Source of the DNA: a virus
Taxonomy: Duplodnaviria; Caudoviricetes
Strand: one strand, 5' to 3'
DNA: 64,000 nucleotides
IMG/VR virus record: IMGVR_UViG_3300028833_000101
Location: 32,001 to 96,000 of that record
A model generated the notes under the pieces. That model did not search any database. It saw only the letters and a program-made list of their open reading frames with translations, and had not been told where the DNA came from. Made by a program: the position numbers and the translations under genes. Position 1 is the first letter of the stretch. Every line of letters begins with the position of its first letter. Shown one piece after another: positions 9,596 through 56,960 of the stretch.

Positions 9596-9922
9596 GTGGA
9601 AAAATTAAAAAATAAAAGATATGCTAACTATAATTACACAAGCAGATATACTGGCGTTCCATATTATTATGACTCTAAAAAAGATCGTGATGTATACGGT
9701 ATTGGAGAGCAATTAAATAAAATTAATTCTTATATATCTCATAAAGTTAAACCAGATGATACTCTAGATGGTTTAGCATTAACTTATTATAATAATCCAA
9801 CTTATTGGTGGATTATTGCATATTTTAATAGAATTACAGATCCATTTATTCAATTAAGCACAAAATTTAGTGTGATTAAAATTCCAAGTTTATCAAGCAT
9901 TGAATTTAAAAACGAAAGATAA
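9596..9922 (+). CDS. LysM-domain baseplate protein (gp53/X-like)
   Basis: HKVKPDDTLDGLALTYYNNPTYWWIIAYFNRI..IKIP. Confidence 0.85.
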   Translation: MEKLKNKRYANYNYTSRYTGVPYYYDSKKDRDVYGIGEQLNKINSYISHKVKPDDTLDGLALTYYNNPTYWWIIAYFNRITDPFIQLSTKFSVIKIPSLSSIEFKNER

Positions 9923-24032: not shown

Positions 24033-27000
24033 ATGGCAGACTATTTAATTAAAAACCAATATGTTCCAAGTAAATATATTAAAGTATTTCCTTGTAGCTA
24101 TAGAGGTCTATATGAAAATGCACTAACAGGCCAAAAGTATGCATTCGACCCAGAATCAAGACTATTGTCTGAAGCTAACCTAAGAAATCTTCCTGGTAAT
24201 GTTGGTGGCAGAGATAGTTATATTATAGACTATACCTCAGATAAAACTTTAAAATGTGTTATTGGTGGATATTATTTTGAAATTTATCAGATTGAATTAA
24301 GTGATTTAGTTCAGGGCGATAATCCAAGATTTCTTTATATTAAGACTGTTAATGTTCCACTTAAAGAAAATGATGATGGTGCCATCAATATTGATAGTGA
24401 TAGAAAAACTACTAGATTAGCAAGCTTTTCTTCAGATAGTGCAGACTTAGATGATAATGATGGTGGTCAAAGTGACTATTACTTTACTGGATTAGTCTGT
24501 CGTTTAGCATCACAAGCTCCTGAATATACTGCAATGCTTCAACCAGTGATTATTAAAGATGGTGAACCAGTTTTAAATAAAGATGCCCGTTTACCAATTT
24601 TATACTCTGGTAACGGAACACCATCAGTAAGAATAAATAATACTGTCAGTGCTGATGGTCAATATAGCTTAGCTCAAGGCATTAGCACAAAAGCATCAGG
24701 AGTTGGCGCCCATGCTGAAGGCCAATTAGCTAATGCTAAAGCAGATTATTCTCACGCAGAAGGTTATGATACTACAGCAAATGGTAAATGGTCTCATACA
24801 GAAGGCCTTAATGCTACAACAACTGCTAATGGTGAATATGCTCATGCAGAAGGTGAAAAAACAGAGGCACAAAAGAAAGCCTCCCACGCTGAAGGTTATA
24901 TTACAAAAGCAAGAGGTGATTATGCGCACACTGAAGGTTTTAGAACAGAAGCTACTGCTGAAGCTGCTCATGCTGAAGGCCTAGGATTAGATGATGCTAC
25001 TAAAACAATTGCATCTGGCAGAGGCGCACATGCTGAAGGTGAAAGTACTCGTGCAAATGCTGTTGCTTCTCATACTGAGGGTAAGAATACTCAGGTTGAT
25101 GCAAATTATGCTCATACTGAAGGTATAGATACATTAGCTACTGGTGAAGGTGCTCATGCTGAAGGTCACTATACTGAAGCAAGAGGTGCATATTCTCATG
25201 CTGAAGGTGAAGGCACAAACCAAAATCCAAGAAAAAGAGTTATTGCATCTGGACATGGTGCACATGCTGAAGGTAAATGAACTGAGGCCAGTGGTGCAAA
25301 TTCACATGCTGAAGGTAATGGCACAACTGCTAGTAATGATGCTGCACACTCTGAAGGTTTAAATACAACTGCCTCTGGCAAATATTCACATGCTGAAGGT
25401 AAAGAAACAGTTGCTTCTGGTGATTATTCACATGCAGGTGGTATTGGCACAAAAGCAAGTAGAGAAGGTCAAACTACTGTTGGTAAATATAATAAAGAAG
25501 ACGATGGTGAATTTATTGTTGGTATTGGTACTGGCAATGCTGCAAATTCTAGAAAAAATGCAGTTGTTGTGAATGGGGCCACTACTAAAATTTGTAATAC
25601 ATTAGAAGTTAAGAATGATAGTGGAACTACTACATTTACTACAAGCCCAGATCAAACAAATATTACTACAGCAACCAACAATATTTCTGGTGCTACAAAT
25701 ACAATTGATGGAACTGCAAGCACATCAATTAATGTTAATAAAGTTGAGAAAGTAAAAGTAGAAGCAACTACAACTACTCTTAAAAATACTGCTTTAAATA
25801 CTTCTGCTACAACTACTTCTATTAAGTGTGGAGACACTGAAAAAATAGGCATTACTACGGATACAACAACAATTAGTGGCACAACAGTTGCAGTTAAGAA
25901 TTCTGAAGACCATAAAATTGAAATAAATAATACTGCAACTAATATTTATGGAAAGGTAAATATTTTGGGCAATGCTGTTACAACTGGAAGTATTACCAGC
26001 AGAGATGGTAATATTATTATCGGAGACGGCACAGGCAAAAATTGTGCAATCACTTATGCTGATAAATTTGAGTCAAAACAAGTATTAGCTCTCAGAACAT
26101 CTGCTCTAGACCCAGATGGAAATCCAGCAAATGGTGCAACAACCACTGCTAACTGAGGCTGTGGACTTATCCTTGGTGGAGATGGTACAACTGTAATTAA
26201 AGGGGGAGAAGCTGGTACTACTAATGATTATTTTACAAATACTATTACTAATTGAAATAATGAAAAAATTTATCTTGTTGCTGATGGTGGTATCGAGCTC
26301 AAATCTAATACTCAAGAAGGCGCAAGTAAGGCTAAAACTTGATATTTTAATAATGATGGAACATTAGTTTGCCCAGGCCCAATTAATGGTAGAATTGCTT
26401 ATACTGTTACTAATGGTGATGCCTCTGATGTTGTTAATATTACTATGGGTAATAATGATGTCTTTAGAATTAGAGGCTATGGCAAAGATGACGTATCATA
26501 TTTAGAAATTGCGACAGCAGACAATGGTAATGAAGCTATTCACTTCCGTCAATATCAATATAAAGAAAATGAAAGTCCTTGGGCAGTTGTTGCACATGAA
26601 TTTACTGCATTAGATACTGATGGTAAAACTAAGGCAAATGACTTAGTAGTTAATGAAAGCTTTAATTTTGCTAATAATAAAGTATACTTTAATAAAACAA
26701 ATACTAGTGCTAGTGGCACATTTAATGTTAATAATAAAATGTGTATTCATGATACTGGCTATATCTATACTCAAGATTCTATTAAAGCTGATGAAAACAT
26801 TGAAGCTTTAAAAACTATTAAAGCAAAAACATTTAATGCTACTTCTGATGCAAGATTAAAAGAAAATATTAAAAAGTTCGAACCATCTAAATCAATCTTA
26901 GACCTTCCAGTTTATAAATATGATTTTATTGATGGACCAAAAAATCAAATAGGATGTTTAGCTCAAGACCTTGAAGAAATCTGTCCTGAAATTGTTGATA

Positions 27001-27551: not shown

Positions 27552-30404
27552 ATGACCGAATTTAAATATTGTGTATATTGTGAAGAAGAGCCAGCCATCT
27601 GTTTTGAAAGTGAGGCCGAAGCTATGAAATTTGCTCGTGAGGATACAAGTATGTATAATAGTGTTAGAGTTGAAAAATCTGAAATAGACGAAGATGGTGA
27701 TGTCTTAAATACTGAAGTTCTTTGAACTGCTAGTGGTAATAATGTTCCAGAAAAAGAAATAGTTCCTGAGAATGAATTTGAGACAGAATTTCCAGAATCT
27801 GATATTGCTAATATTGACACTTCAGATGATGTAGATTATGATGAACTTGCAAGACAGTATGCAGAAGACCCAGCTGATTGAATTGATGATAATAAATTAA
27901 TTAAAGAAGCTGTTGATGTTCTAGAAGAAAATGAAGATGAAGTTGAATGCAAAGTTTGTTTTGAGCTTGGTCCTAAAGCTGAAATGAAAAAATTAGATAT
28001 TGGTTATGTTTGTCCAAAATGTGCACAAGAATTACAATCACATCAAGGCACAAATTTAGATTTACTTGATAATGACCCATTTAGTCTAGATTATGAAGAC
28101 CCAAGAGACTTTGATGAACCTGAAGAGGAAGAAGTCAAAGAAGAACCTGTCAATGGCACTGAGATGAGAAAACATGAAAAAGCAATCGAAGAAGAGCTAA
28201 AAGTTATTATAGATTTTAGTGAATATAAACCTTGGTCTGGTGCTGTTGATACTTATGAATTAATAAAAGATGCTGATAAATTAGATGAACTTGAAGCTTA
28301 TCTTGAAGAATGTTACCCAGAGGGAGTTACCGCCGGAACAATTAATGATATTCTTTGGTTTGACAGTGAAGAAATTTTAAAATATCTTGGACTTGGCGAC
28401 GTTGAAGAAGATGAAGAAGAAGTTGATGAATCATTAAATGAAGAAGAAACTTTTAAGCAAGGTTTTGATTCTTATAATGCTTATGGAGAAAAAGTCGAAG
28501 AAAATTTAGAAGAAAAAGTTGACTTACCAGCATTTGATAGTGATGTAAAAGTTGGTGATAAAATTAGAATTATTCATTTAGAAGGTGAAGATAATTCTTA
28601 TGATGGAAAAGAAGGTGAAGTCACTAATATCGATTCTATTGGACAACTTCATGGAACTTGAGGCGGATTAGCTGTTATCCCAGGTGTTGATCAATTTGAA
28701 GCTGTTATTGAAGAGCATGTTAATGATAGACCAGCTGATATTGAAAGCGACCAAGTTTTACAAGGTGCTGATAATGCAGTAGTTGATTGCGATGTTGCAA
28801 AAGTAATTGCACATAGTGAAGATGAAAAACCATTAGACTGCAAAATGGAAAAGCCTGCTTTAGAAGAACCATTAGCTGGTGAAGAAGTTAAACCTGACCT
28901 AGTTGAAGCTAAAAAAGATGATGAGTTACCTGTTGACCCAGAAGCTGCTAAACTTGAAGTTCATACAATGTTAAATGATTTGGTGGCAGATGAAATCGAA
29001 GCTATCAATGGTTATGAAGAAGCTAAGAAAGAAATTCTTGATACTCCAATTGCTCATAAAGATAATATTTTAGATACTATCGACCACGTTGAAGATGAAG
29101 AAAAAGAACATGTTGATGAATTAATTAGCGCAACAACTGAAATTCCATTTGATAAAGAAGAAGCTCCAGCTCCAGTAGTTGAAGAACCTGTAGTTAAAGA
29201 AGAACCACTTGATCAAGAATTTCCAGAAGTTGATGAAAACTTAGAAGAAGAAGTATCGGAAGATAAATTTGCTGAGGTAGAAGCCTATTTAAAAAATGCA
29301 GATAGAGGCTCTATCGATTTTGAATGGGAGACCGATGAAGATATCTGTAATGGCTCAATTCTTTGAAATGAAAAGAAAGAAAGATTTGAAGCTGGCTTAA
29401 GCATTTATCATGCCAGTGAAGATAATAATGCAGAATACCCAGAAATGCACACTGATGAAGAAGATGCATCTGCTAAAACTATTAAAGAGCTATATAAATT
29501 ATTAGTCGATGATTATGGTGAAGAATTTAAAAACGCTTTTGAAGATGCAATAAATCATAAAGAGTTAACTGAAGAAAAAGCCAAACCAGAAGGCAACAAA
29601 GTTCTTAGCTATAATAAAGCATTGGCTATCGCAAATTCTGAAGGAAAACCTGTTATTTATGGTTATACAAACACTTCTTATAATGGAAAATACTTTGAAG
29701 TAGACCCAATTGTTTGTAATAGTGTAAGTGATGAAACTAAAAAATTTAAACAACAATATAAGAGCGCTGGAACAGTCTATGTAGCATACCCAGGCAAAAG
29801 CTTTATTGAAAGCTTAAGAGAAGCTGCCAATGTAGACTATGTTGAATATATGCATTCTTATTGCAATGCTCTTGAACCACATATGGACGAGCTTAAAAAA
29901 ATTGAAGATGTCGAAGAACTTAAAAAAGCAATCTTAGATATTGTCAATAAAGACCCAGATGTTAATACTACTGAAAAGAAAAATAAATTTGTCTGGCTAA
30001 TTAAGAATAAAAAATGGGGTTCTACTAAGAGTATTATGAAATACCTAGAAAAAGCAATGAATAAAGCTAAAGGTATTGAAGTTAAAGTTGATGACAATGG
30101 TGAGCTTATTAAAGAAGATATTGAAGAAGCTGACCCAAAAGAAACACAATTTGTTTTCACACCAGAAGAACAAGCAGAATATAATTGTGACGAAGATGGT
30201 AACTGTGAAGATGGCTATGACCAATTATGCCATTGTGGTTGGTGTGGTGAAGTATTCCCTACAAGTGAAATGCGCCATGAAGTTGACTTTGGCTGAATTT
30301 GTTCTAGATGTGAAGACGAATTAAAATCACATGGTGGTCCACTTACATTTATTGAAGAAGCAGTCGAAAAGAAAGACCCTAAAGATGCTACTAAAGAAGC
30401 TTAA
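27552..30404 (+). CDS. Acidic multi-domain protein (950 aa, code 4): Zn ribbons, DUF4314-like and ferritin-like modules; candidate internal head polyprotein
   Basis: One frame with 5 TGA. CxxC pairs; GDKIRII..GQLHGT(W)GGLAVIPG; DEIEAINGY..EEKEH; many L/I-x-E sites. Confidence 0.75.
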
Positions 30405-31165: not shown

Positions 31166-31642
31166 ATGAAGTATTACTCAGAAGTACTCGATAAAGTTTT
31201 CGAGACAGAAAAAGAATTAAAAGCTGCTGAAAAAGCAGATGCCGATGAAAAGGCAAAAAAAGAAGAAGCTAAAGCTTTAGTTAAGAAAGAATCAACAGAA
31301 GTTGAAGACTCCTTCAAAGCAAGAAATGCTGCAAGACATGCTTATAACGAAAAACTCGTTGAGGCAAGAAAAATCTACAATGAAGCTTTAAGAAAAGCTA
31401 AAGATGAATTTGAGGCTAGCTTAAAAGAATCAACAGAAGCTTTAGAAAAAGCTGAAGCTGATTATGACACTAGACTTAAAGCTTTCCAAAAAGCCCATCC
31501 AGAAGGTTATCACATTACGCTTAAAGATGGTGATAATGTTGTAACTTATACAAACAATCCAGGCGATTATCAAGTTAGAAATATAGAGAAAGAATTTGAC
31601 GATATGTTAAATATGTTCTCTAACTTACTTAGACGCTGGTAA
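31166..31642 (+). CDS. Coiled-coil hypothetical protein
   Basis: Intact ORF with AGGAG RBS; rich in K, E and A. Confidence 0.8.
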   Translation: MKYYSEVLDKVFETEKELKAAEKADADEKAKKEEAKALVKKESTEVEDSFKARNAARHAYNEKLVEARKIYNEALRKAKDEFEASLKESTEALEKAEADYDTRLKAFQKAHPEGYHITLKDGDNVVTYTNNPGDYQVRNIEKEFDDMLNMFSNLLRRW

Positions 31643-31680
31643 TTAGCTTCTAAATTCTGGGGCTTAACTAAATAAAATTA

Positions 31681-31853
31681 TTATTCGCCCGAGCAGTACG
31701 ACTTATTGCCAAAGTATCCGTGTTCGTAATGTTAACTAAAATAGCGCGAGAAACAGCAATAAGCAAAAAGGGTAGAAACTATACTTATTTCTAAAGACTT
31801 ATTTATTCTAAACAAAGAGAATAATTGGCTGCGCTATTAGTTAGTTCGAATAA
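31681..31853 (+). ncRNA. Putative pseudoknotted structured RNA
   Basis: Multiple nested stems plus 8-nt complementarity between a loop (31702-09) and a downstream segment (31756-63). No ORF. Confidence 0.6.
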
Positions 31854-31878
31854 ATATAAAAATATTGTATAATATTAT

Positions 31879-31990
31879 GTGAGCGTAATAGCTCATGAAG
31901 TTCATAGTAGCGCTAAGGTAAAACTTAGCATCCTCCCTTCAACAGCAGCTTATCACAATTCCTCCTGGTATGTTGCTGTTTTTCTTTTTT
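31879..31990 (+). ncRNA. Putative sRNA with anti-SD motifs
   Basis: TATAAT at 31868-73, three hairpins, TCCTCCCTTC linker, TTCCTCC loop and a terminator T run. Confidence 0.7.
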
Positions 31991-32002
31991 GCTAAATTAA
32001 AT

Positions 32003-32056
32003 GGTCGGTCAAATAGCGCCATCACCTTCGCCACAGCTAAGTTGACCGGCTTTTTT
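32003..32056 (+). ncRNA. Putative late-promoter mini hairpin RNA
   Basis: TTGCTAAATTA at 31989, then GGTCGGTCAA...TTGACCGGC plus T6. The loop contains GCCATCACCT. Confidence 0.55.
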
Positions 32057-32070
32057 ATTACTTAATTAAA

Positions 32071-32081
32071 TTGCTAAATTA
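32071..32081 (+). promoter_or_regulatory. Putative late promoter TTGCTAAATTA
   Basis: Head of the paralog array. Confidence 0.75.
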
Positions 32082-32098
32082 TACGATAGGCAAAAATT

Positions 32099-32485
32099 AT
32101 GTTAAGGTGAAAAGATATTCAAGTATATGCAGATGAGGCAATTACGCGCTTTACAAATATGTATAGAAACATTAGCCTTATTGGGGCCGGGCTTGCTCCG
32201 AATAGCCCAGATAAGTATTTAATTTATCTTGATGATAAAAAATTAGCTGGAACCTTTAAAGTAATTATTACTGAAGAATTTTTAAATGGCCAAACACAGA
32301 CAATTGATTTAGCTGCAAAGATTCCAAGTAGTTTTCCAGAAGAGAAAAAAGTTGTATTAAGAATTGCTTATGCTATTTTAGTTGCTTGACAACGACACTT
32401 TATTGAAGCCTATAAACAAGTTGCACCAAATAAGTATGATGTAACTTTTGCTAATGCTAAAAATTGATATGATGGTTTAAAATAA
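32099..32485 (+). CDS. LRxAY-family paralog 1 (code 4)
   Basis: 3 TGA, the first at codon 4. KKVVLRIAYAIL. Confidence 0.75.
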
Positions 32486-39975: not shown

Positions 39976-42507
39976 ATGGCCAGTAGTAAATATAATATAG
40001 CTACATTATTTCATGATATTGCAGATAGTATTAGAGATAAGCTTGAGTACCCAAAAGAAGCTTATACTATAAAACCAAAAGAGTTTGCAGATGAAATTTT
40101 AAATTTACCTCAAACTATTACTGGTGGTGCGACATATGCTGACCCTGCATTATTAGTAGAGGGAACTATTACAGACATAACTAATGATGCTGCATATATT
40201 AAACCTTATACTTTTGCTTATTGTTCAAATCTTACTAGTGCTGAATTTCCAAAATGTTCAAAAATTGGCTCTAATACTTTTTTACAGGCTGTTAATTTAA
40301 ATTCTATCAGTTTTCCAGTTGTTGAACAAATTGAGCCTTGGGCATTTAGTAGCTGTGCTGGTTTAGTTACAGTTAGTTTTCCAGAATGTATTAGAATTAA
40401 TACAGGAGCATTTTGTAATTGCTCCTCTTTGCAATCTGTTACTTTGAGTAAATGCTCTTATATTGGTGATCGTGCTTTTTATAGTAATAATGAGTTAATA
40501 AGCTTAAATTTAGAACAGGTTGAATATATTGGGCCTTCAGCTTTTCAATATTGTACTAAACTTTCTAATATTTCACTGCCAAATGTCACTTCTATTGGAA
40601 TGTATGCTTTTAATGGAACCGCTACTGATAGTCTATTTAGAAACTTATCACTATCAAAATGTAGAAGAATTGAAAGTTATGCATTTGCAAATGGCTTTGA
40701 TACTATTTCATTACCAGAGTGTACTTATATTGGTTCACAAAATTATGGAGGCGGGTCAAACTATACCTATAGTTTAAGCTACTTAGAACTTCCAAAAGCT
40801 CGTATGTTAGATAGAGTTTTTTGTAACTACTGGAATTTACAGGCGGTTAGTTTACCAGAAGTAACTATATTAGCGGCAACGTTTTCAAACTGTCGTTATT
40901 TAAGCAATGTATATGCACCAAAAGTTACTTCAATTTACTCTGATACTTTTAACAGCTGCTATTCATTGTCATCCGCTGTGTTTTCTAAAGTTACGTATCT
41001 AGGCAGTGAAGCTTTTGCTAATTGTTCAAATCTTAGTACAATATCTTTTGGTAAATTAACTACCATTTGTTCATTTGCTTTTTATGGTTGCTCCAAATTA
41101 ACAGATATAAATTGTGGCTATGGGACAAATGTATTACCAGTAACTACAATTTCAGATGGAGCATTTAATCGTTGCTCTATGTTGCCAAGCATAACATTTT
41201 TATATTGCAGTAATTTTAGTTCTGTAAATATTTTTAGTGACTGCTCTAATTTAACAACGTTAATCTTTTTACCAAGTAGTGCTACTTTTTCTAGTAAATT
41301 TAATCTGCCAGCAATACAAAGTATTTATGTTAGGTCAAGTTATATTAGTGTATGAAAAAATACTAAAAATTTATCTCATTACTCTAACATTATTCAATCT
41401 TTGCCAGCAGATATTGAATCATTATATACATTTGAGAAAGAATTTTATAGTTCAAATATATCTGAAATACCATTATCAAAAATAAATACTAAATATATAT
41501 TAAGTAGTGCTTTTTGGCGTTGCCAAAATTTAAGCACTGCTTTATTGCCAGAGGCAGTAATTATAGATGGCTCTGCATTTTATTCATGTAAAAATTTAGT
41601 TGAAGTCTCATTACCAAATGCTATTAAATTAGGCAATTATTGCTTTTACTCTGATAATAAAATTTCAAATATCTATTTACCAAACTTAATATCAGCTGGT
41701 GCTTATTGTTTTACCTCTTGTACTGCATTTTCAAAGATGAGCTGTATTGACTTACCAAATGTTATTGAACTTGGTGCACAATGTTTCGCATGACTTAACA
41801 TATCTAAAATTTTTGTTCCTAAATTACAAACTGCCGGTCCGGGATGTTTTTCTGTTAATAGATGACTACAAACTATAGATTTACCAAATTGTACAACACT
41901 TGGTGAAAGTTGTTTCTGAGCATGTGAACAATTAAGTAGTATAAATATTCCATTAATAACAAGTATTCCAAAAGGAGCTTTTTATGCTTGTTATAGTTTA
42001 TCTGCTATTCCTAATAACTCTACACTTACTGCTATTGGTTCAGACGCTTTTGCAAACTGTCATAATTTACAAGGTGATATATTTTTGCCAAAAGCTAGTA
42101 TTATTGGTTCAAACGCTTTTTATGGACTTATGAATTCAAATATAAATAAAATAATTTTAGGAAATGTAAGTATAGGAACAAATGCCTTTACATCAATTTA
42201 TAATCTCTCTGCTGTGCATCTTGCTGGTGGTACTATTAGTTGTTATGCATTTAGAAGCTGTAGAACAATACCAAGTATTTATTTTTATAGTTCTAAGTTA
42301 ATTTCTATGGAATTAGCAAATCGATCCCCAGTAGTCCTATTTGGTGGTACTGATATTGGAACGATATATGTAAGACAATCATTGTTTAATAATTATTTAA
42401 AAGATTCAAATTGAAAATATTATTCAAGTCATTTTAGTAGTCTTACAGATGAAGAAATGAATATATTATATCAAGAAAATTATGGATTACCCTATAATCA
42501 AGATTAA
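39976..42507 (+). CDS. BspA-type leucine-rich repeat (LRR_5) protein 1 (843 aa, code 4)
   Basis: IGxxAFxxCxxL repeats and IYVR..N(W) caps. 5 TGA. Confidence 0.88.
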
Positions 42508-42522
42508 TTTGGAGGCAACTAA

Positions 42523-45405
42523 ATGGCAAATTCTGTAAATACTACTTTAAAAAACATAGCAGATGCAATTAGATATAAATTAGAAACTGATGAACTAATT
42601 TCACCAATAGATTTTCCAAGTAAAATTTCTGAAATTCCTGTTGCAGTAGGTGGTTTTGATGACCCAACACCTATTATTACTGGAACTGTTAGGCTTGTTA
42701 GTAATAGTGCTTCATTTATTCGTGCTTATGCTTTTTATGATTGTTCACAGTTAGCAGCTGTAAGTTTTCCAAATTGCACAAGTATTAATAATGGGGTATT
42801 TGCTAATTGTAGTGCTTTAAAAACAGTTAATTTTGCTACCTGTACTTCTATTGGAAGTAGCGCATTTTATCAATGTTCAAATTTATCAACATTTTCTTTT
42901 CCGAACTGTGAATATATTGGTAATAGTGCTTTTTATAATTGTTCAAAGCTATCTAATATAGATTTACCAAATTGTAGCTTTATTGGAAATAACGCTTTTA
43001 CTAATTGCTATAATATTTCAAGTATTAATTTACCTAATGTTAAAGTTTTAGGGGGAGCAGCATTTTGTGCTTGTAGAAATATTACTGGGCCGGTAAGTTT
43101 ACCTGTTATTAGTAGCTTATATGATAGTGTATTTTATGACTGTAGAAATATTACCTCAGTCTATCTACCAGAACTAACATCTTTATATGGCAGTGTATTT
43201 GAAAACTGTTCACAATTATCTAGTTTTTATTTACCAAAGATAAAGACTATTTATGGCAACGCTTTTTATAATACTGCCTTGACAGGAAGTATTGAGTTAT
43301 CTACGCTTGAAGGGATTGGTAGTTCGGTTTTTGGCAAAACATCTATAACTAATTTTAGTGCTCAAAATTGCTCTCGAATAGAAAATGGTAATTCGCCATT
43401 CCCATCCAGTATTTTAAGTATTTATATGCCAAACTTAACTAAGATTTATGGATGTGGATTTCAAAATTGCTCCAATTTACAAACCTTAGACATTCCATAC
43501 TCGAAAATTGATTATATTAATGCATATGCTTTTGCAAATACTCCATTTTCAACCCTTACATTAACTGGCATTTCCAGTATTTTATATGGAACATTTATAG
43601 ATTGTTCAAATTTAGTTAGTATCTATGTGCCATATGCAGTTAATATTGATGCATGATCTGGCTATTCTCAAGCAGGCATTTTTGCAAATTGTTATAATTT
43701 AACAACCATAAATAATCCACAAAATATTGTTAACTTTAGAGACATTAAATGGGATACTTTTAAAAACTGCAGCGCATTAACACATATTACACTGACTGAG
43801 GCAAGTAAGATCTATACTGGAGCATTCGCTGGGTGTAAAAATTTACATACACTAATTTTATTAGGTGATTCCCTTTTTAATAGCTATCCAGCAAATGCTT
43901 TTACAGATACTCCAATCTTAACTTCCAGTTATTTAGGTACTTATGGAAGCATCTATGTACCAGCAGTATATTTAAGTTCTTATAAAGCTAACTGACCGGA
44001 AGTTTCAGAGAGAATCGTAGCGCTAGATTCGTCAGATTATATTGCACCATTTGAATTTGCAGAATCAAATATTTCAGAAATTCCACTCTCTAAATTAAAT
44101 GCTTATTATATAGGAAAAAATGCATTTGTCTCATGTAATAACTTAGAGTCAGTAACATTATCTAATTGTTTAGCTATGGCTGTAGATGCTTTTGAGTACT
44201 GTTCACAATTAGTATCTGTAAATTTACCAAATTGCTTAACTATCAATAAAAATTATACTGACATGAATTGCTTTTCTGGTTGTGAGAATCTTAAAATAAT
44301 AAATCTTCCTAAAGTAAAAAGACTTGATAATACAAATTTTCCAAGTAGTCTTGAAAGTATTAATTTAGCAAATTGCTCAGATATTACTGGCTATGATACT
44401 TTTTCTGGTTGTAATATTAGTATGATAGATCTTCCAGAATGCGTGAACGTAGGCCCTGCTACTTTTTCTGGTTGTAGCTTATTAACTTCAGCAAATTTAC
44501 CAAAAGTTAAGTACATTTCTAACAATTGCTTTATAAGCTGCACTAATTTAACAGAAGTCACTATTGGACCTGCTACAAGTGTTATTGGTTATTGTGCATT
44601 TCAAGGATGCACAAATCTAAGTAGCTTTAATTTTTCTCAAATACAAGTCATAGAAGGAAGTGCTTTTGCGGATTGTTCAAATTTAAGTGGCACCTTACAT
44701 TTAGAAAATGTTTCATCATTTGGACTATATGCTTTTAGAAATTGTCAAAATATCTCAAGTGTTATCTTATCTTTTGATAAAATAACTACTTTTGGTCAAG
44801 GTGTATTTAATGGTTGCTCCAATATAATGTCAAGTTTTATAGGTGGAAACTATATATGTGACTCTCTCGGAAATCCAGTTTGGTATCAAGGACCATACTC
44901 TACAGATATAACAACTTTAGCTTTTCCAAATACTTATAGACTTGGAATATTTGGTAATCAACTTGGTAATTGTTGGAGTATTCAAACTATTGTTTTTCCA
45001 TCTACAATAACAAGTATTCCTGCCGAATTTTATTGCAGTAGAACTATTCAACTAGATAACCATCAATACCCATTAAATACTGTTTATATTTTAGGAAATC
45101 CGTTCATTGGTAATGATGCCTTTATGTATAAAACACACTTAAGTTCTGTTTATATCCTTGGCAGTGAAATGGCTTCATTTGGCGGTAGAGGTTGAGGCGA
45201 CTATACTTTAATTAATGGTTGAAGTGGCTGGGGTTCACGATCTGCATCTGGTAAAATTTATGTAAGAGCATCATTAGCTGATGCTTATAGAAATCAAGTT
45301 GCAAGCTTATCAAGTTTAAAAAATGCGACAATTGAAGGATTATCTGATGAGGAAATAGATAATTTATTAATAGAATTAAATCAAACTTATCCTAATGTTA
45401 TATAA
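42523..45405 (+). CDS. BspA-type leucine-rich repeat (LRR_5) protein 2 (960 aa, code 4)
   Basis: Same repeats. Shares the IADAIR N-terminus and SNISEIPLSK linker with protein 1. 4 TGA. Confidence 0.88.
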
Positions 45406-55961: not shown

Positions 55962-56250
55962 AAAATAAAAGCGACGACTCAGAGCCTGGAAAAGAGAGAG
56001 GTGATGGCTCGTTGTGTGTCGTCGCCGGGACCGAAGCCCCTGAAAGGAGGTAATTGTCATATAAGGAGATTTGACTCATTAAACTGCCCGAAACCTTACT
56101 GACTTAGTTTTATCATGCGGTTTAAGTACGTATCGTTAGTTAGTCTTTTTGACACTCTATTGATTACCTATCGTCTATTGATTATCTATCGTTATACGTA
56201 TCGTTCTGAGGCGGTCCTTTACATTATCGGCAGTTTTTCGGTCGCCTCAT
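55962..56250 (-). ncRNA. Putative ~290 nt sRNA with three anti-SD elements
   Basis: Minus-strand TTGTATAAT (-10 at 56256-61), 5' hairpin, cUUCGg tetraloop, and a terminator stem GCGACGAC/GTCGTCGC followed by a U run. Confidence 0.7.
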
Positions 56251-56309: not shown

Positions 56310-56960
56310 AACTTCGTGCGTGTGCATACGTGGCGGCGCGCCAGTATTCTTAATCCTTAGAAGAATACCGTGCGTGGCCATGTGCGTGCGTATATACTAA
56401 AGCTTTCAAATCAGGGCGATTTCAAATGCTATGAAACTCAGGCAATTTCAAGTGCAGGTTAATAACAACTTATATATGATCTATCTATCTAACGATAGAT
56501 CATATATAAGCTATTTTGAAGCAGCTGTAGGTTAGCCCTGTAAAAAAGTTAAAAAAACTATTTACAACTGTTTACTTTTGTGCTATAATATTGTTATAAT
56601 GGGGGGTGTTTTTTTAAAAAAAATAAAAAACCCTGAAATCGGGATATTTTAGACTGTATAATATAATAGGGAATAAAATGAAATTGGAACAATTTCATTT
56701 ATGTGTGCGCAAGCACACACGTGTAATACTAAAAAAATTCAACCTAAATAAAATTCCAAATCAGGGTGTTTTTAATAATTTAATAAATTAATAATTTAAT
56801 GATTTAATGTTTTAATAAATTATTAACACATAAATTATATGTACATGAATTATCTATATTAATTCTTAGCTAATATTTTATAGCTATAGTAGCATAGCTT
56901 ATAATATATAGCTTATATATAAGCTTTTGGCGCCCGCACACATATGTACACGTGTACAGT
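56310..56960. other. Origin- or terminus-like non-coding region
   Basis: 17-bp perfect inverted repeat at 56469-56510, alternating purine-pyrimidine tracts, AT-rich 9-mer repeats, an orphan promoter and TTCAAATCAGGG-type repeats. Confidence 0.5.

Follow-up and report, generated by a model that had tools for sequence, protein, structure and literature searches.

A putative phage-encoded small RNA with two conserved, unpaired anti-Shine-Dalgarno tracts in a TGA-recoded genome

Introduction

Does the spacer between two genes of a TGA-recoded phage encode a small RNA (sRNA), and does this RNA act on translation by pairing with Shine-Dalgarno (SD) sequences? The spacer is located in the window, the 64,000-nt stretch of DNA analysed here, which represents bases 32001-96000 of the 104.7-kb IMG/VR record IMGVR_UViG_3300028833_000101. 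A preliminary description of this DNA had proposed that the spacer contains a stand-alone sRNA with two motifs complementary to SD sequences and that this sRNA is a translational repressor. In this report, the structure and conservation of the locus are analysed in related phages, its possible targets are searched for, and the proposed function is weighed against alternatives.

Results

Genome setting of the window

The completeness of the 104.7-kb record is estimated to be 46% by CheckV, which gives a full genome size of ~220-230 kb. The GC content is ~31%, and nearly all long open reading frames (ORFs) are located on the + strand. TGA is a sense codon across much of the genome, as fragments join into abutting genes when genetic code table 4 is used. 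Five fragments at 27552-30404 of the window form a single 950-codon frame with five TGA codons under this table, and a 42-nt AHAEG repeat at 24033-25441 stays in frame through the TGA near 25278. In the gene set prepared for this analysis, the mean number of in-frame TGA codons per gene is 2.13 to the left of ~45.4 kb and only 0.16 to the right. This distribution agrees with that of the TGA-recoded 'Jade'-type phages, which have a genome of ~201 kb, recoded late genes and predicted Firmicutes hosts (bioRxiv 10.1101/2021.08.26.457843); the two are likened by their recoding pattern only. Three proteins with BspA-type leucine-rich repeats (LRR_5, E about 1e-50) are encoded at 39976-45195, and repeated DNA segments are located between them.

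An early-type promoter, TTTACA(A)-N17-TGnTATAAT, is present in ~25 copies at 36225-64000 of the window and beyond it (to position 104702 of the record), and each copy precedes a TGA-free gene. Another recurrent motif, TTTGCTAAATTAtA, is found 15 times, mostly directly 3' of a terminator and 5' of TGA-containing genes, and probably represents a middle or late promoter specific to the phage. TGCTAAATT is present in 15 copies in the record, mostly between a terminator and the next gene. The TTTACA-N17-TGnTATAAT promoters are SigA-like with an extended -10 element, and therefore suggest a host of Bacillota type. SD pairing dominates translation initiation in Bacillota, and the phage genes have strong AGGAGG-type ribosome-binding sites (AAGGAG, AGGAGGA). 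GGAGG is found 28 times on the + strand of the 104.7-kb record, as compared with 10 times for CCTCC.

Organization of the sRNA gene

The sequence features of the spacer identify 31879-31990 as a predicted stand-alone non-coding RNA gene of ~110 nt on the + strand. The features of this locus and of two other candidate RNAs of the phage are as follows (window coordinates).

31166-31642: upstream gene P0002 (table 4; no TGA)
31866-31873, + strand: promoter -10 element TGTATAAT, with TATAAT at 31868-31873, inside TTGTATAAT
31879-31896, + strand: hairpin 1 (GUGAGC / GUAAUA / GCUCAU), arms 31879-31884 with 31891-31896 (GTGAGC/GCTCAT in DNA)
31901-31908, + strand: invariant single-stranded block UUCAUAGU; its complement, ACUAUGAA, contains AUG
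31912-31929, + strand: hairpin 2 (GCUAAG / GUAAAA / CUUAGC), arms 31912-31917 with 31924-31929 (GCTAAG/CTTAGC in DNA)
31931-31940, + strand: CU-rich motif 1, UCCUCCCUUC (TCCTCCCTTC in DNA), single-stranded; complement GAAGGGAGGA
31941-31980, + strand: hairpin 3, intrinsic terminator stem, with the 10-nt loop CAATTCCTCC at 31956-31965
31959-31965, + strand: CU-rich motif 2, UUCCUCC (TTCCTCC in DNA), inside the loop of hairpin 3
31981-31990, + strand: terminator U-tract (T-tract in DNA); a T-run follows hairpin 3 in all versions
31989-31999, + strand: promoter-like recurrent motif TTGCTAAATTA, late-type
31989-32057, + strand: linked second unit, of lower confidence, consisting of the TTGCTAAATTA motif, a hairpin and a U-tract
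32003-32051, + strand: 14-bp hairpin of the second unit, the 18-nt loop of which holds CAUCACCUUC
32099-32485: downstream gene P0001 (table 4; three TGA)
55965-56245, - strand: candidate ~280-nt RNA with a -10-only TTGTATAAT-type promoter, ending in a GC hairpin and U-tract

The -10 box, hairpins 1 and 2, the single-stranded motif 1 and the terminator loop with TTCCTCC are all located exactly where the preliminary description had placed them. It did not include the third invariant block UUCAUAGU, the setting in a TGA-recoded, jumbo-type phage or the nearby RNAs with anti-SD-like tracts. TATAAT is present in 10 of 10 versions of the sRNA (see below), 5-6 nt 5' of hairpin 1, with no conserved -35 element, and the DNA upstream of it is unrelated between lineages. 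Because of this fixed distance, the transcript should begin at the foot of hairpin 1. A TTGTATAAT-type box without a TTTACA -35 element recurs at other intergenic sites of the phage.

The + strand RNA of 31876-31992 folds into three hairpins with an energy of -32.4 kcal/mol (z = -3.83), and none of 200 shuffled sequences folds as well. The - strand of this region folds worse (z = -2.21). The probability of being unpaired is 0.69 for motif 1 and 0.97 for motif 2 in the window RNA, and ranges across independent folds from 0.69 to 0.99 and from 0.97 to 1.00, respectively. Hairpin 3 is overlooked as a terminator by a simple terminator scan, because its loop is longer than 8 nt. Two of the ten + strand CCTCC copies of the record are 29 nt apart, and both are located in the sRNA; a pair within 30 nt has ~p = 0.05 genome-wide by a Poisson estimate and is only modestly unusual by itself.

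Related sRNAs in other phages

Ten distinct versions of the sRNA, including that of the window, are found in related phage contigs. A covariance-model search detects one copy per record and no paralogues. The syntenic loci L004 and L005 are obtained by an IMG/VR search with the upstream protein P0002, and L012, L015 and L016 are added by a degenerate DNA pattern in metagenome contigs. P0002 has 414 database relatives, and a protein profile built from 16 diverse ones among these matches reaches L025 and L026/L027, in which the upstream protein is 45-49% identical. The covariance model R1 locates the sRNA at the same place in L025 and L026/L027, with E-values of 4e-10 and 3e-5, which are rough owing to quick calibration. 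The pattern of the three conserved single-stranded blocks alone leads to L031 and to L033, L034, L036 and L037, which share one identical sRNA sequence. One of the contigs found by this pattern is 221 kb long and 95% complete.

Other matches are rejected. L014, L028, L035, L038 and L039 are chance pattern matches, four of the six matches of a hairpin-2 18-mer pattern alone are chance matches in coding sequences, and a pattern scan of genome contigs gives only two matches, which are due to chance and located in coding sequence of a Mucilaginibacter MAG.

The sRNA has no match in the INPHARED phage collection (blastn, distant mode). Rfam 15 gives no match at gathering score for the whole window, in which tRNA and tmRNA scans are also empty, and a permissive Rfam scan of 31400-32300 gives only four chance-level matches to snoRNA or Y-RNA (E 0.78-6.8). 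No Rfam family, including RsaE, LhrC, csRNA and cuckoo, matches at gathering score, and none related to these is found at E up to 10. The sRNA therefore represents a new RNA family.

The 221-kb relative, record IMGVR_UViG_3300031555_004739 (G003; L040-L051), is near-complete (95%), with a size of 221361 bp and 38% GC. Its 31 tRNA genes are clustered at 196-221 kb; ARAGORN calls a tRNA-Trp(CCA) among its tRNAs and no tRNA with the anticodon UCA.

Covariation of the stems and conservation of the single-stranded blocks

In the alignment A5, 96.9% of the cells are paired and 22 of the 27 pairs are changed on both sides, counts which depend on the fit of A5 to the structure of the model. This covariation is reached by none of 500 column shuffles, and only 31-53% of the cells are paired when the partners are slid by 1-3 columns. 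When the ten versions are folded singly, all of them form the same three hairpins with the CU motifs open. The pair table of A5 contains 24 G-U cells; these are A-C mismatches on the other strand, and the polarity is therefore fixed as + strand RNA.

All three stems change in sequence and retain their structure. All seven pairs of hairpin 1 are altered on both sides across the ten versions. In hairpin 2, this applies to five of six pairs, 100% of the cells are paired, and the stem is swapped in distant versions for GCGGA/UCCGC, GCUGC/GCAGC, GGAUGC/GCAUCC or ACACAC/GUGUGU. Ten of the 14 pairs of hairpin 3 are altered on both sides, with 98-100% of the cells paired. In total, 49 of the 54 stem columns vary, and variation is likewise free in loops 1 and 2 and in the remaining linkers.

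Invariant columns are distributed in the opposite manner, being five of 54 among paired columns versus 26 of 55 among well-occupied unpaired columns. These 26 columns make up three blocks, UU-AUAGU (31901-31908), UCCU-CC-UU (31931-31939) and UUCCUCC (31959-31965), in addition to the U-tail. Conservation of the CU-rich motifs had been set beforehand as a test of the sRNA proposal. UUCCUCC is identical in 10 of 10 versions despite varying loop length, and UCCUCCC is present in nine of ten; L005 has UCCUUCC, in which the C-to-U change still permits a G-U wobble with GGAGG. That these motifs are free of base pairing, as had been described for the window, is borne out in every independently folded homologue. 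UUCAUAGU is conserved as strongly as the CU motifs, being identical in nine of ten versions (UUAAUAGU in L005), and is unpaired both in the consensus structure and in independent folds.

The 3' two-thirds of the sRNA are 87-99% identical to those of closer relatives, as compared with 66-87% for the flanking genes. The spacer around the sRNA is only 16-49% identical or is replaced. These results indicate, at the sequence level, that the motifs are exposed and under strong purifying selection. Conservation and covariation in the nine other versions are the decisive evidence that the predicted sRNA gene is a real RNA gene.

Neighbouring genes

The sRNA gene is located in a spacer of 456 nt between P0002 and P0001. 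It is located downstream of a P0002-type gene in nine of ten versions, 50-230 nt past the stop codon, at protein identities down to 40%. In L031, it is preceded by a different gene (L031:2300-2746), which, judged from its C-terminus, apparently encodes a Dam-like methylase. This suggests that the sRNA is an independent module. The downstream region also differs, because an early-type TTTACA-N17-TATAAT promoter is located 3' of the sRNA in L025, L026 and L031, and the late-type TTGCTAAATTA motif in the window. Given these differing up- and downstream neighbours, the sRNA travels as a separate unit that includes both promoter and terminator. Transcripts reading through from the upstream gene probably also stop at hairpin 3, as a further terminator is not evident between this hairpin and the P0002-type gene in L004, L015 and L016.

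P0002 belongs to no Pfam or PHROG family. It is predicted to form a single ~95-residue helix flanked by small beta elements (pLDDT 83), and the labels 'seryl-tRNA synthetase' and 'FliH' given in the source appear to be artefacts of a coiled coil. P0002 was considered as an RNA-binding partner of the sRNA and rejected, since it has one long predicted helix, no family and no sign of an RNA-binding fold.

The spacers show several other features. The 25 nt past the stop codon of P0002 (TTAGCTTCTAAATTCTGGGGCTTAA, 31643-31667) are conserved across lineages, in frame after TAA, and L025 retains CTTCTACTCCTGGGGCTTAA after the stop codon although its P0002-type protein is only 49% identical. A structured insert of ~175 nt with a long-range stem, AACTAAAATAGCGC / GCGCTATTAGTT, is located between P0002 and the sRNA promoter (31681-31853); it is present only in the window and the near-identical L012, absent in L004, L015 and L016, and different in L005. 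In L031, the start of the next gene, UACUAUGAAAC, shows complementarity to the invariant UUCAUAGU(A) block.

Complementarity to ribosome-binding sites

Both CU tracts are complementary to the SD sequences GGAGG, AGGAGGAA and AAGGGAGGA. The preliminary description had pointed to the ribosome-binding sites of the phage as possible targets. The strong SD sites of the phage are indeed complementary to the sRNA, but duplex scans reveal nothing specific beyond generic SD sites: across the whole 104.7-kb record and 117 predicted start regions, no target is complementary beyond the SD core. The best-scoring duplex sites are the strongest SD sequences, such as those at the starts at 9596, 36468 and 6923 and at positions 26075 and 99146 of the record. 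AAGGGAGG, which is perfectly complementary to motif 1, is not found on the + strand of the 104.7-kb record but is present at three gene starts in the 221-kb relative.

Two further candidates are rejected. Specific repression of late genes is not supported, as early and late start regions are equal in complementarity (Mann-Whitney p 0.4-0.9). The best non-SD duplex match is a 10-mer within a coding region, which involves an sRNA segment partly located in the terminator stem; ~10 such matches are expected by chance.

UUCAUAGU is located 5' of the anti-SD tract and has the right polarity to span a start region together with this tract, with hairpin 2 bulged out. A strict anti-AUG role of this block is nevertheless argued against by L005, in which the C of CAU is altered. 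A single early gene, at record position 96766, has a perfect 10-mer match, UACUAUGAAC, at its start; ACTATGAA is found nine times, and the match is compatible with chance.

At 56581-56620, GGGGGGTG and a T run are located 3' of two overlapping TGnTATAAT boxes and represent a very short G-rich start with an immediate U-tract. This G-rich leader could in principle pair with the CCUCCC tract of the sRNA.

Other candidate RNAs of the phage

The second unit, downstream of the sRNA, has a fold z of -3.14. It is identical in L004 and L012, has the loop GCCUCCCCUG in L016, and is absent or degenerate in L015, L005, L025, L026, L031 and L033. Its loop sequence in the window, CAUCACCUUC, copies the 3' tail of 16S rRNA more closely than the sRNA motifs do. 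The same is true of UUACCUCCUUUC and CAUCACCUCUC, which are carried by the minus-strand RNA at 55965-56245.

Discussion

Proposed mechanism

Transcription of the sRNA gene would proceed rightward from the -10-only TATAAT promoter and end at its own intrinsic terminator. Hairpin 1, located at the predicted 5' end, is probably a protective stem-loop, as such 5' stem-loops are known in Bacillota; hairpin 2 would serve as a structural spacer and hairpin 3 as the terminator. The three tracts that are both invariant and unpaired would be the working parts, namely UUCAUAGU, UCCUCCCUU in the linker 5' of the terminator, and UUCCUCC in the terminator loop. Because the CU tracts are complementary to SD sequences, action in trans is most likely. 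By pairing with ribosome-binding sites on messages of the host or the phage, the sRNA would prevent binding of the 30S subunit, and its two CU tracts may be redundant seeds, as in LhrC. Repression of translation in trans by SD pairing is, with moderate confidence, the most likely action of the sRNA, because of its SD complementarity, the SD sites of the phage, the Bacillota-type promoters and the precedent of the LhrC layout. We infer transcription, SD pairing, repression and target identity alike from sequence. The invariant UUCAUAGU block is unaccounted for by a pure anti-SD model.

Comparison with known sRNAs

LhrC of Listeria monocytogenes has redundant CU-rich (CUCCC) sites, each of which can pair with the SD region of a target, and acts without Hfq (PMC4132741). 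The sRNA resembles it in its size of ~100 nt, in its origin from a low-GC organism and in having one CU site in the terminator loop and one in the unpaired segment that precedes the terminator. The third CU site of LhrC is located in loop A, whereas the third tract of the sRNA is UUCAUAGU, with loops 1 and 2 variable. LhrC is also chromosomal, multicopy and induced by envelope stress (PMC4132741), unlike the phage-borne, single-copy sRNA, and the two share no sequence or Rfam homology. Unpaired C-rich motifs in loops or linkers of RsaE/RoxS, the RNAIII hairpins and SprD pair with SD sequences and block initiation (PMC2790875; PMC4132741). The sRNA likewise has unpaired, conserved C/CU-rich motifs (probability of being unpaired 0.69-1.00), but its UCCUCCC and UUCCUCC are fuller anti-SD copies than the UCCC or CCCC of those sRNAs.

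The csRNAs of Streptococcus contain both an anti-SD and an anti-start-codon (CAU) sequence in an unpaired region (PMC3091779). CAU is also present inside the invariant UUCAUAGU, 5' of the anti-SD tract. However, the two tracts are contiguous in one linker in csRNAs, whereas CAU (31903-31905) and CCUCC (31932-31936) are separated here by hairpin 2, and CAU is changed to AAU in L005. In the cuckoo RNAs of alphaproteobacteria (CcsR1-4 / alpha-r14 / NfeR1), stem mutations are compensatory and an anti-SD-like pyrimidine motif, CCUCCUCCC, is the sole conserved sequence, present in every loop of 2-4 adjacent hairpins (PMC4615179). The sRNA has the same signature of free stems and a frozen pyrimidine motif. 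It differs from the cuckoo RNAs in that one motif is located in one of three loops and the other in a linker, loops 1 and 2 being variable and lacking the motif, in that its motifs are 7-9 nt long and unlike CCUCCUCCC, and in that it is encoded by a phage and belongs to another phylum.

As in the anti-SD sRNA class, the sRNA has, by sequence, its own promoter and Rho-independent terminator in ten versions, no conserved ORF, and a conserved CU-rich motif in an unpaired loop or linker. The best-supported placement, by analogy, is functionally with the CU/C-rich anti-SD sRNAs LhrC, RsaE/RoxS, RNAIII and SprD, of which SprD is carried on a mobile pathogenicity island. The sRNA is thus a new RNA family within a known mechanistic kind.

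Alternative explanations

It is very improbable that the conserved element is a small protein gene or a DNA-level signal, such as an origin, a packaging site or a protein-binding site, instead of an RNA. The preliminary description had noted no ORF in this region. This is correct in that no frame is conserved, but the element is spanned by an open frame of 37-38 codons on the + strand, and a 22-codon mini-ORF preceded by AAGGGAGGA is present on the - strand. In the homologues, these frames are broken or unrelated, with lengths of 5 to 59 codons and indels that shift the frame. A 2-nt indel is present in the loop of L016, L005 and others, L005 has lost the ATG, the peptides are unrelated, and the substitutions track base pairing instead of codon position. 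The many G-U pairs, which fit + strand RNA alone, and the presence of a single copy per genome with the anatomy of a promoter and terminator also argue against a protein gene or DNA site. With its own conserved -10 box and terminator and no conserved ORF, the locus retains the character first proposed for it, that of a putative stand-alone, phage-encoded non-coding RNA gene. The element might instead act in cis, mainly as the 3' UTR and terminator of the P0002 message, which it would stabilise or on the ribosome-binding site of which it would fold back. The icaR 3' UTR folds back in this manner on its own ribosome-binding site. The occurrence of the sRNA behind the same gene in nine of ten versions, at 50-230 nt from its stop codon, and the probable end of read-through transcripts at hairpin 3, with no other terminator evident in L004, L015 and L016, are consistent with a role in cis, as are the P0002 ribosome-binding site, UAGGAGAU, and a TTGTATATT box resembling the sRNA promoter in front of P0002. 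This role is still rather improbable, because every version retains TATAAT at a constant spacing whereas the DNA separating the sRNA from the upstream gene is replaced, because the upstream gene of L031 is a different one, apparently a methylase gene, and because complementarity to the P0002 ribosome-binding site is only 5 nt, at a site outside the 20 best-scoring ones.

The canonical 3' tail of bacterial 16S rRNA is GAUCACCUCCUUUCU, and the tracts of the sRNA resemble it. The sRNA may instead be a decoy for a protein that recognises or cuts this tail. It would titrate this protein, for example a defence rRNase or toxin of the host, a nuclease involved in maturation or an initiation factor, and would not pair with messages. 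The presence of several tail-like RNAs in one phage suits titration, since the adjacent hairpin loop carries CAUCACCUUC and a separate minus-strand RNA with a promoter of the TTGTATAAT type carries UUACCUCCUUUC and CAUCACCUCUC; moreover, a specific mRNA target is not found in the 104.7-kb record or the 117 start regions. However, motifs 1 and 2 read UCCUCC, without the A that precedes the ACCUCC core, and are poorer copies of the tail than those of the other two RNAs. A candidate protein partner is lacking, and protein titration leaves it unexplained why the linker and loop tracts have differing flanks and why each tract is invariant. A decoy function is improbable. A more extended reading is doubtful, in which the sRNA, the tandem mini-hairpin RNA at 31994-32057 and the minus-strand RNA at 55965-56245, all with anti-SD or 16S-tail-like tracts, form a programme directed against SD-dependent initiation, re-tuning the choice of messages loaded by the host ribosome during the switch from the standard code to one in which TGA is read as Trp. 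If true, such a programme could, for example, silence host messages with strong SD sequences, or delay late messages that contain TGA until the suppressor machinery is in place.

Significance

To our knowledge, few base-pairing sRNAs have been published from lytic or jumbo phages that have hosts of Gram-positive type, and we know of none described in stop-codon-recoded phages. A literature search combining phage-encoded, small RNA and anti-Shine-Dalgarno gave nothing relevant. The sRNA is a compact and testable gene, in which the stems vary freely and the single-stranded seeds are fixed. Its phage lineage is uncultured and widespread, as the neighbouring protein has 414 database relatives. The covariance model could be used for a new family in RNA databases and for the annotation of related phages. 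If the seeds bind ribosome-binding sites, the phage would gain a direct RNA handle on the translation of its host or its own, and this control would act where TGA recoding already re-engineers translation.
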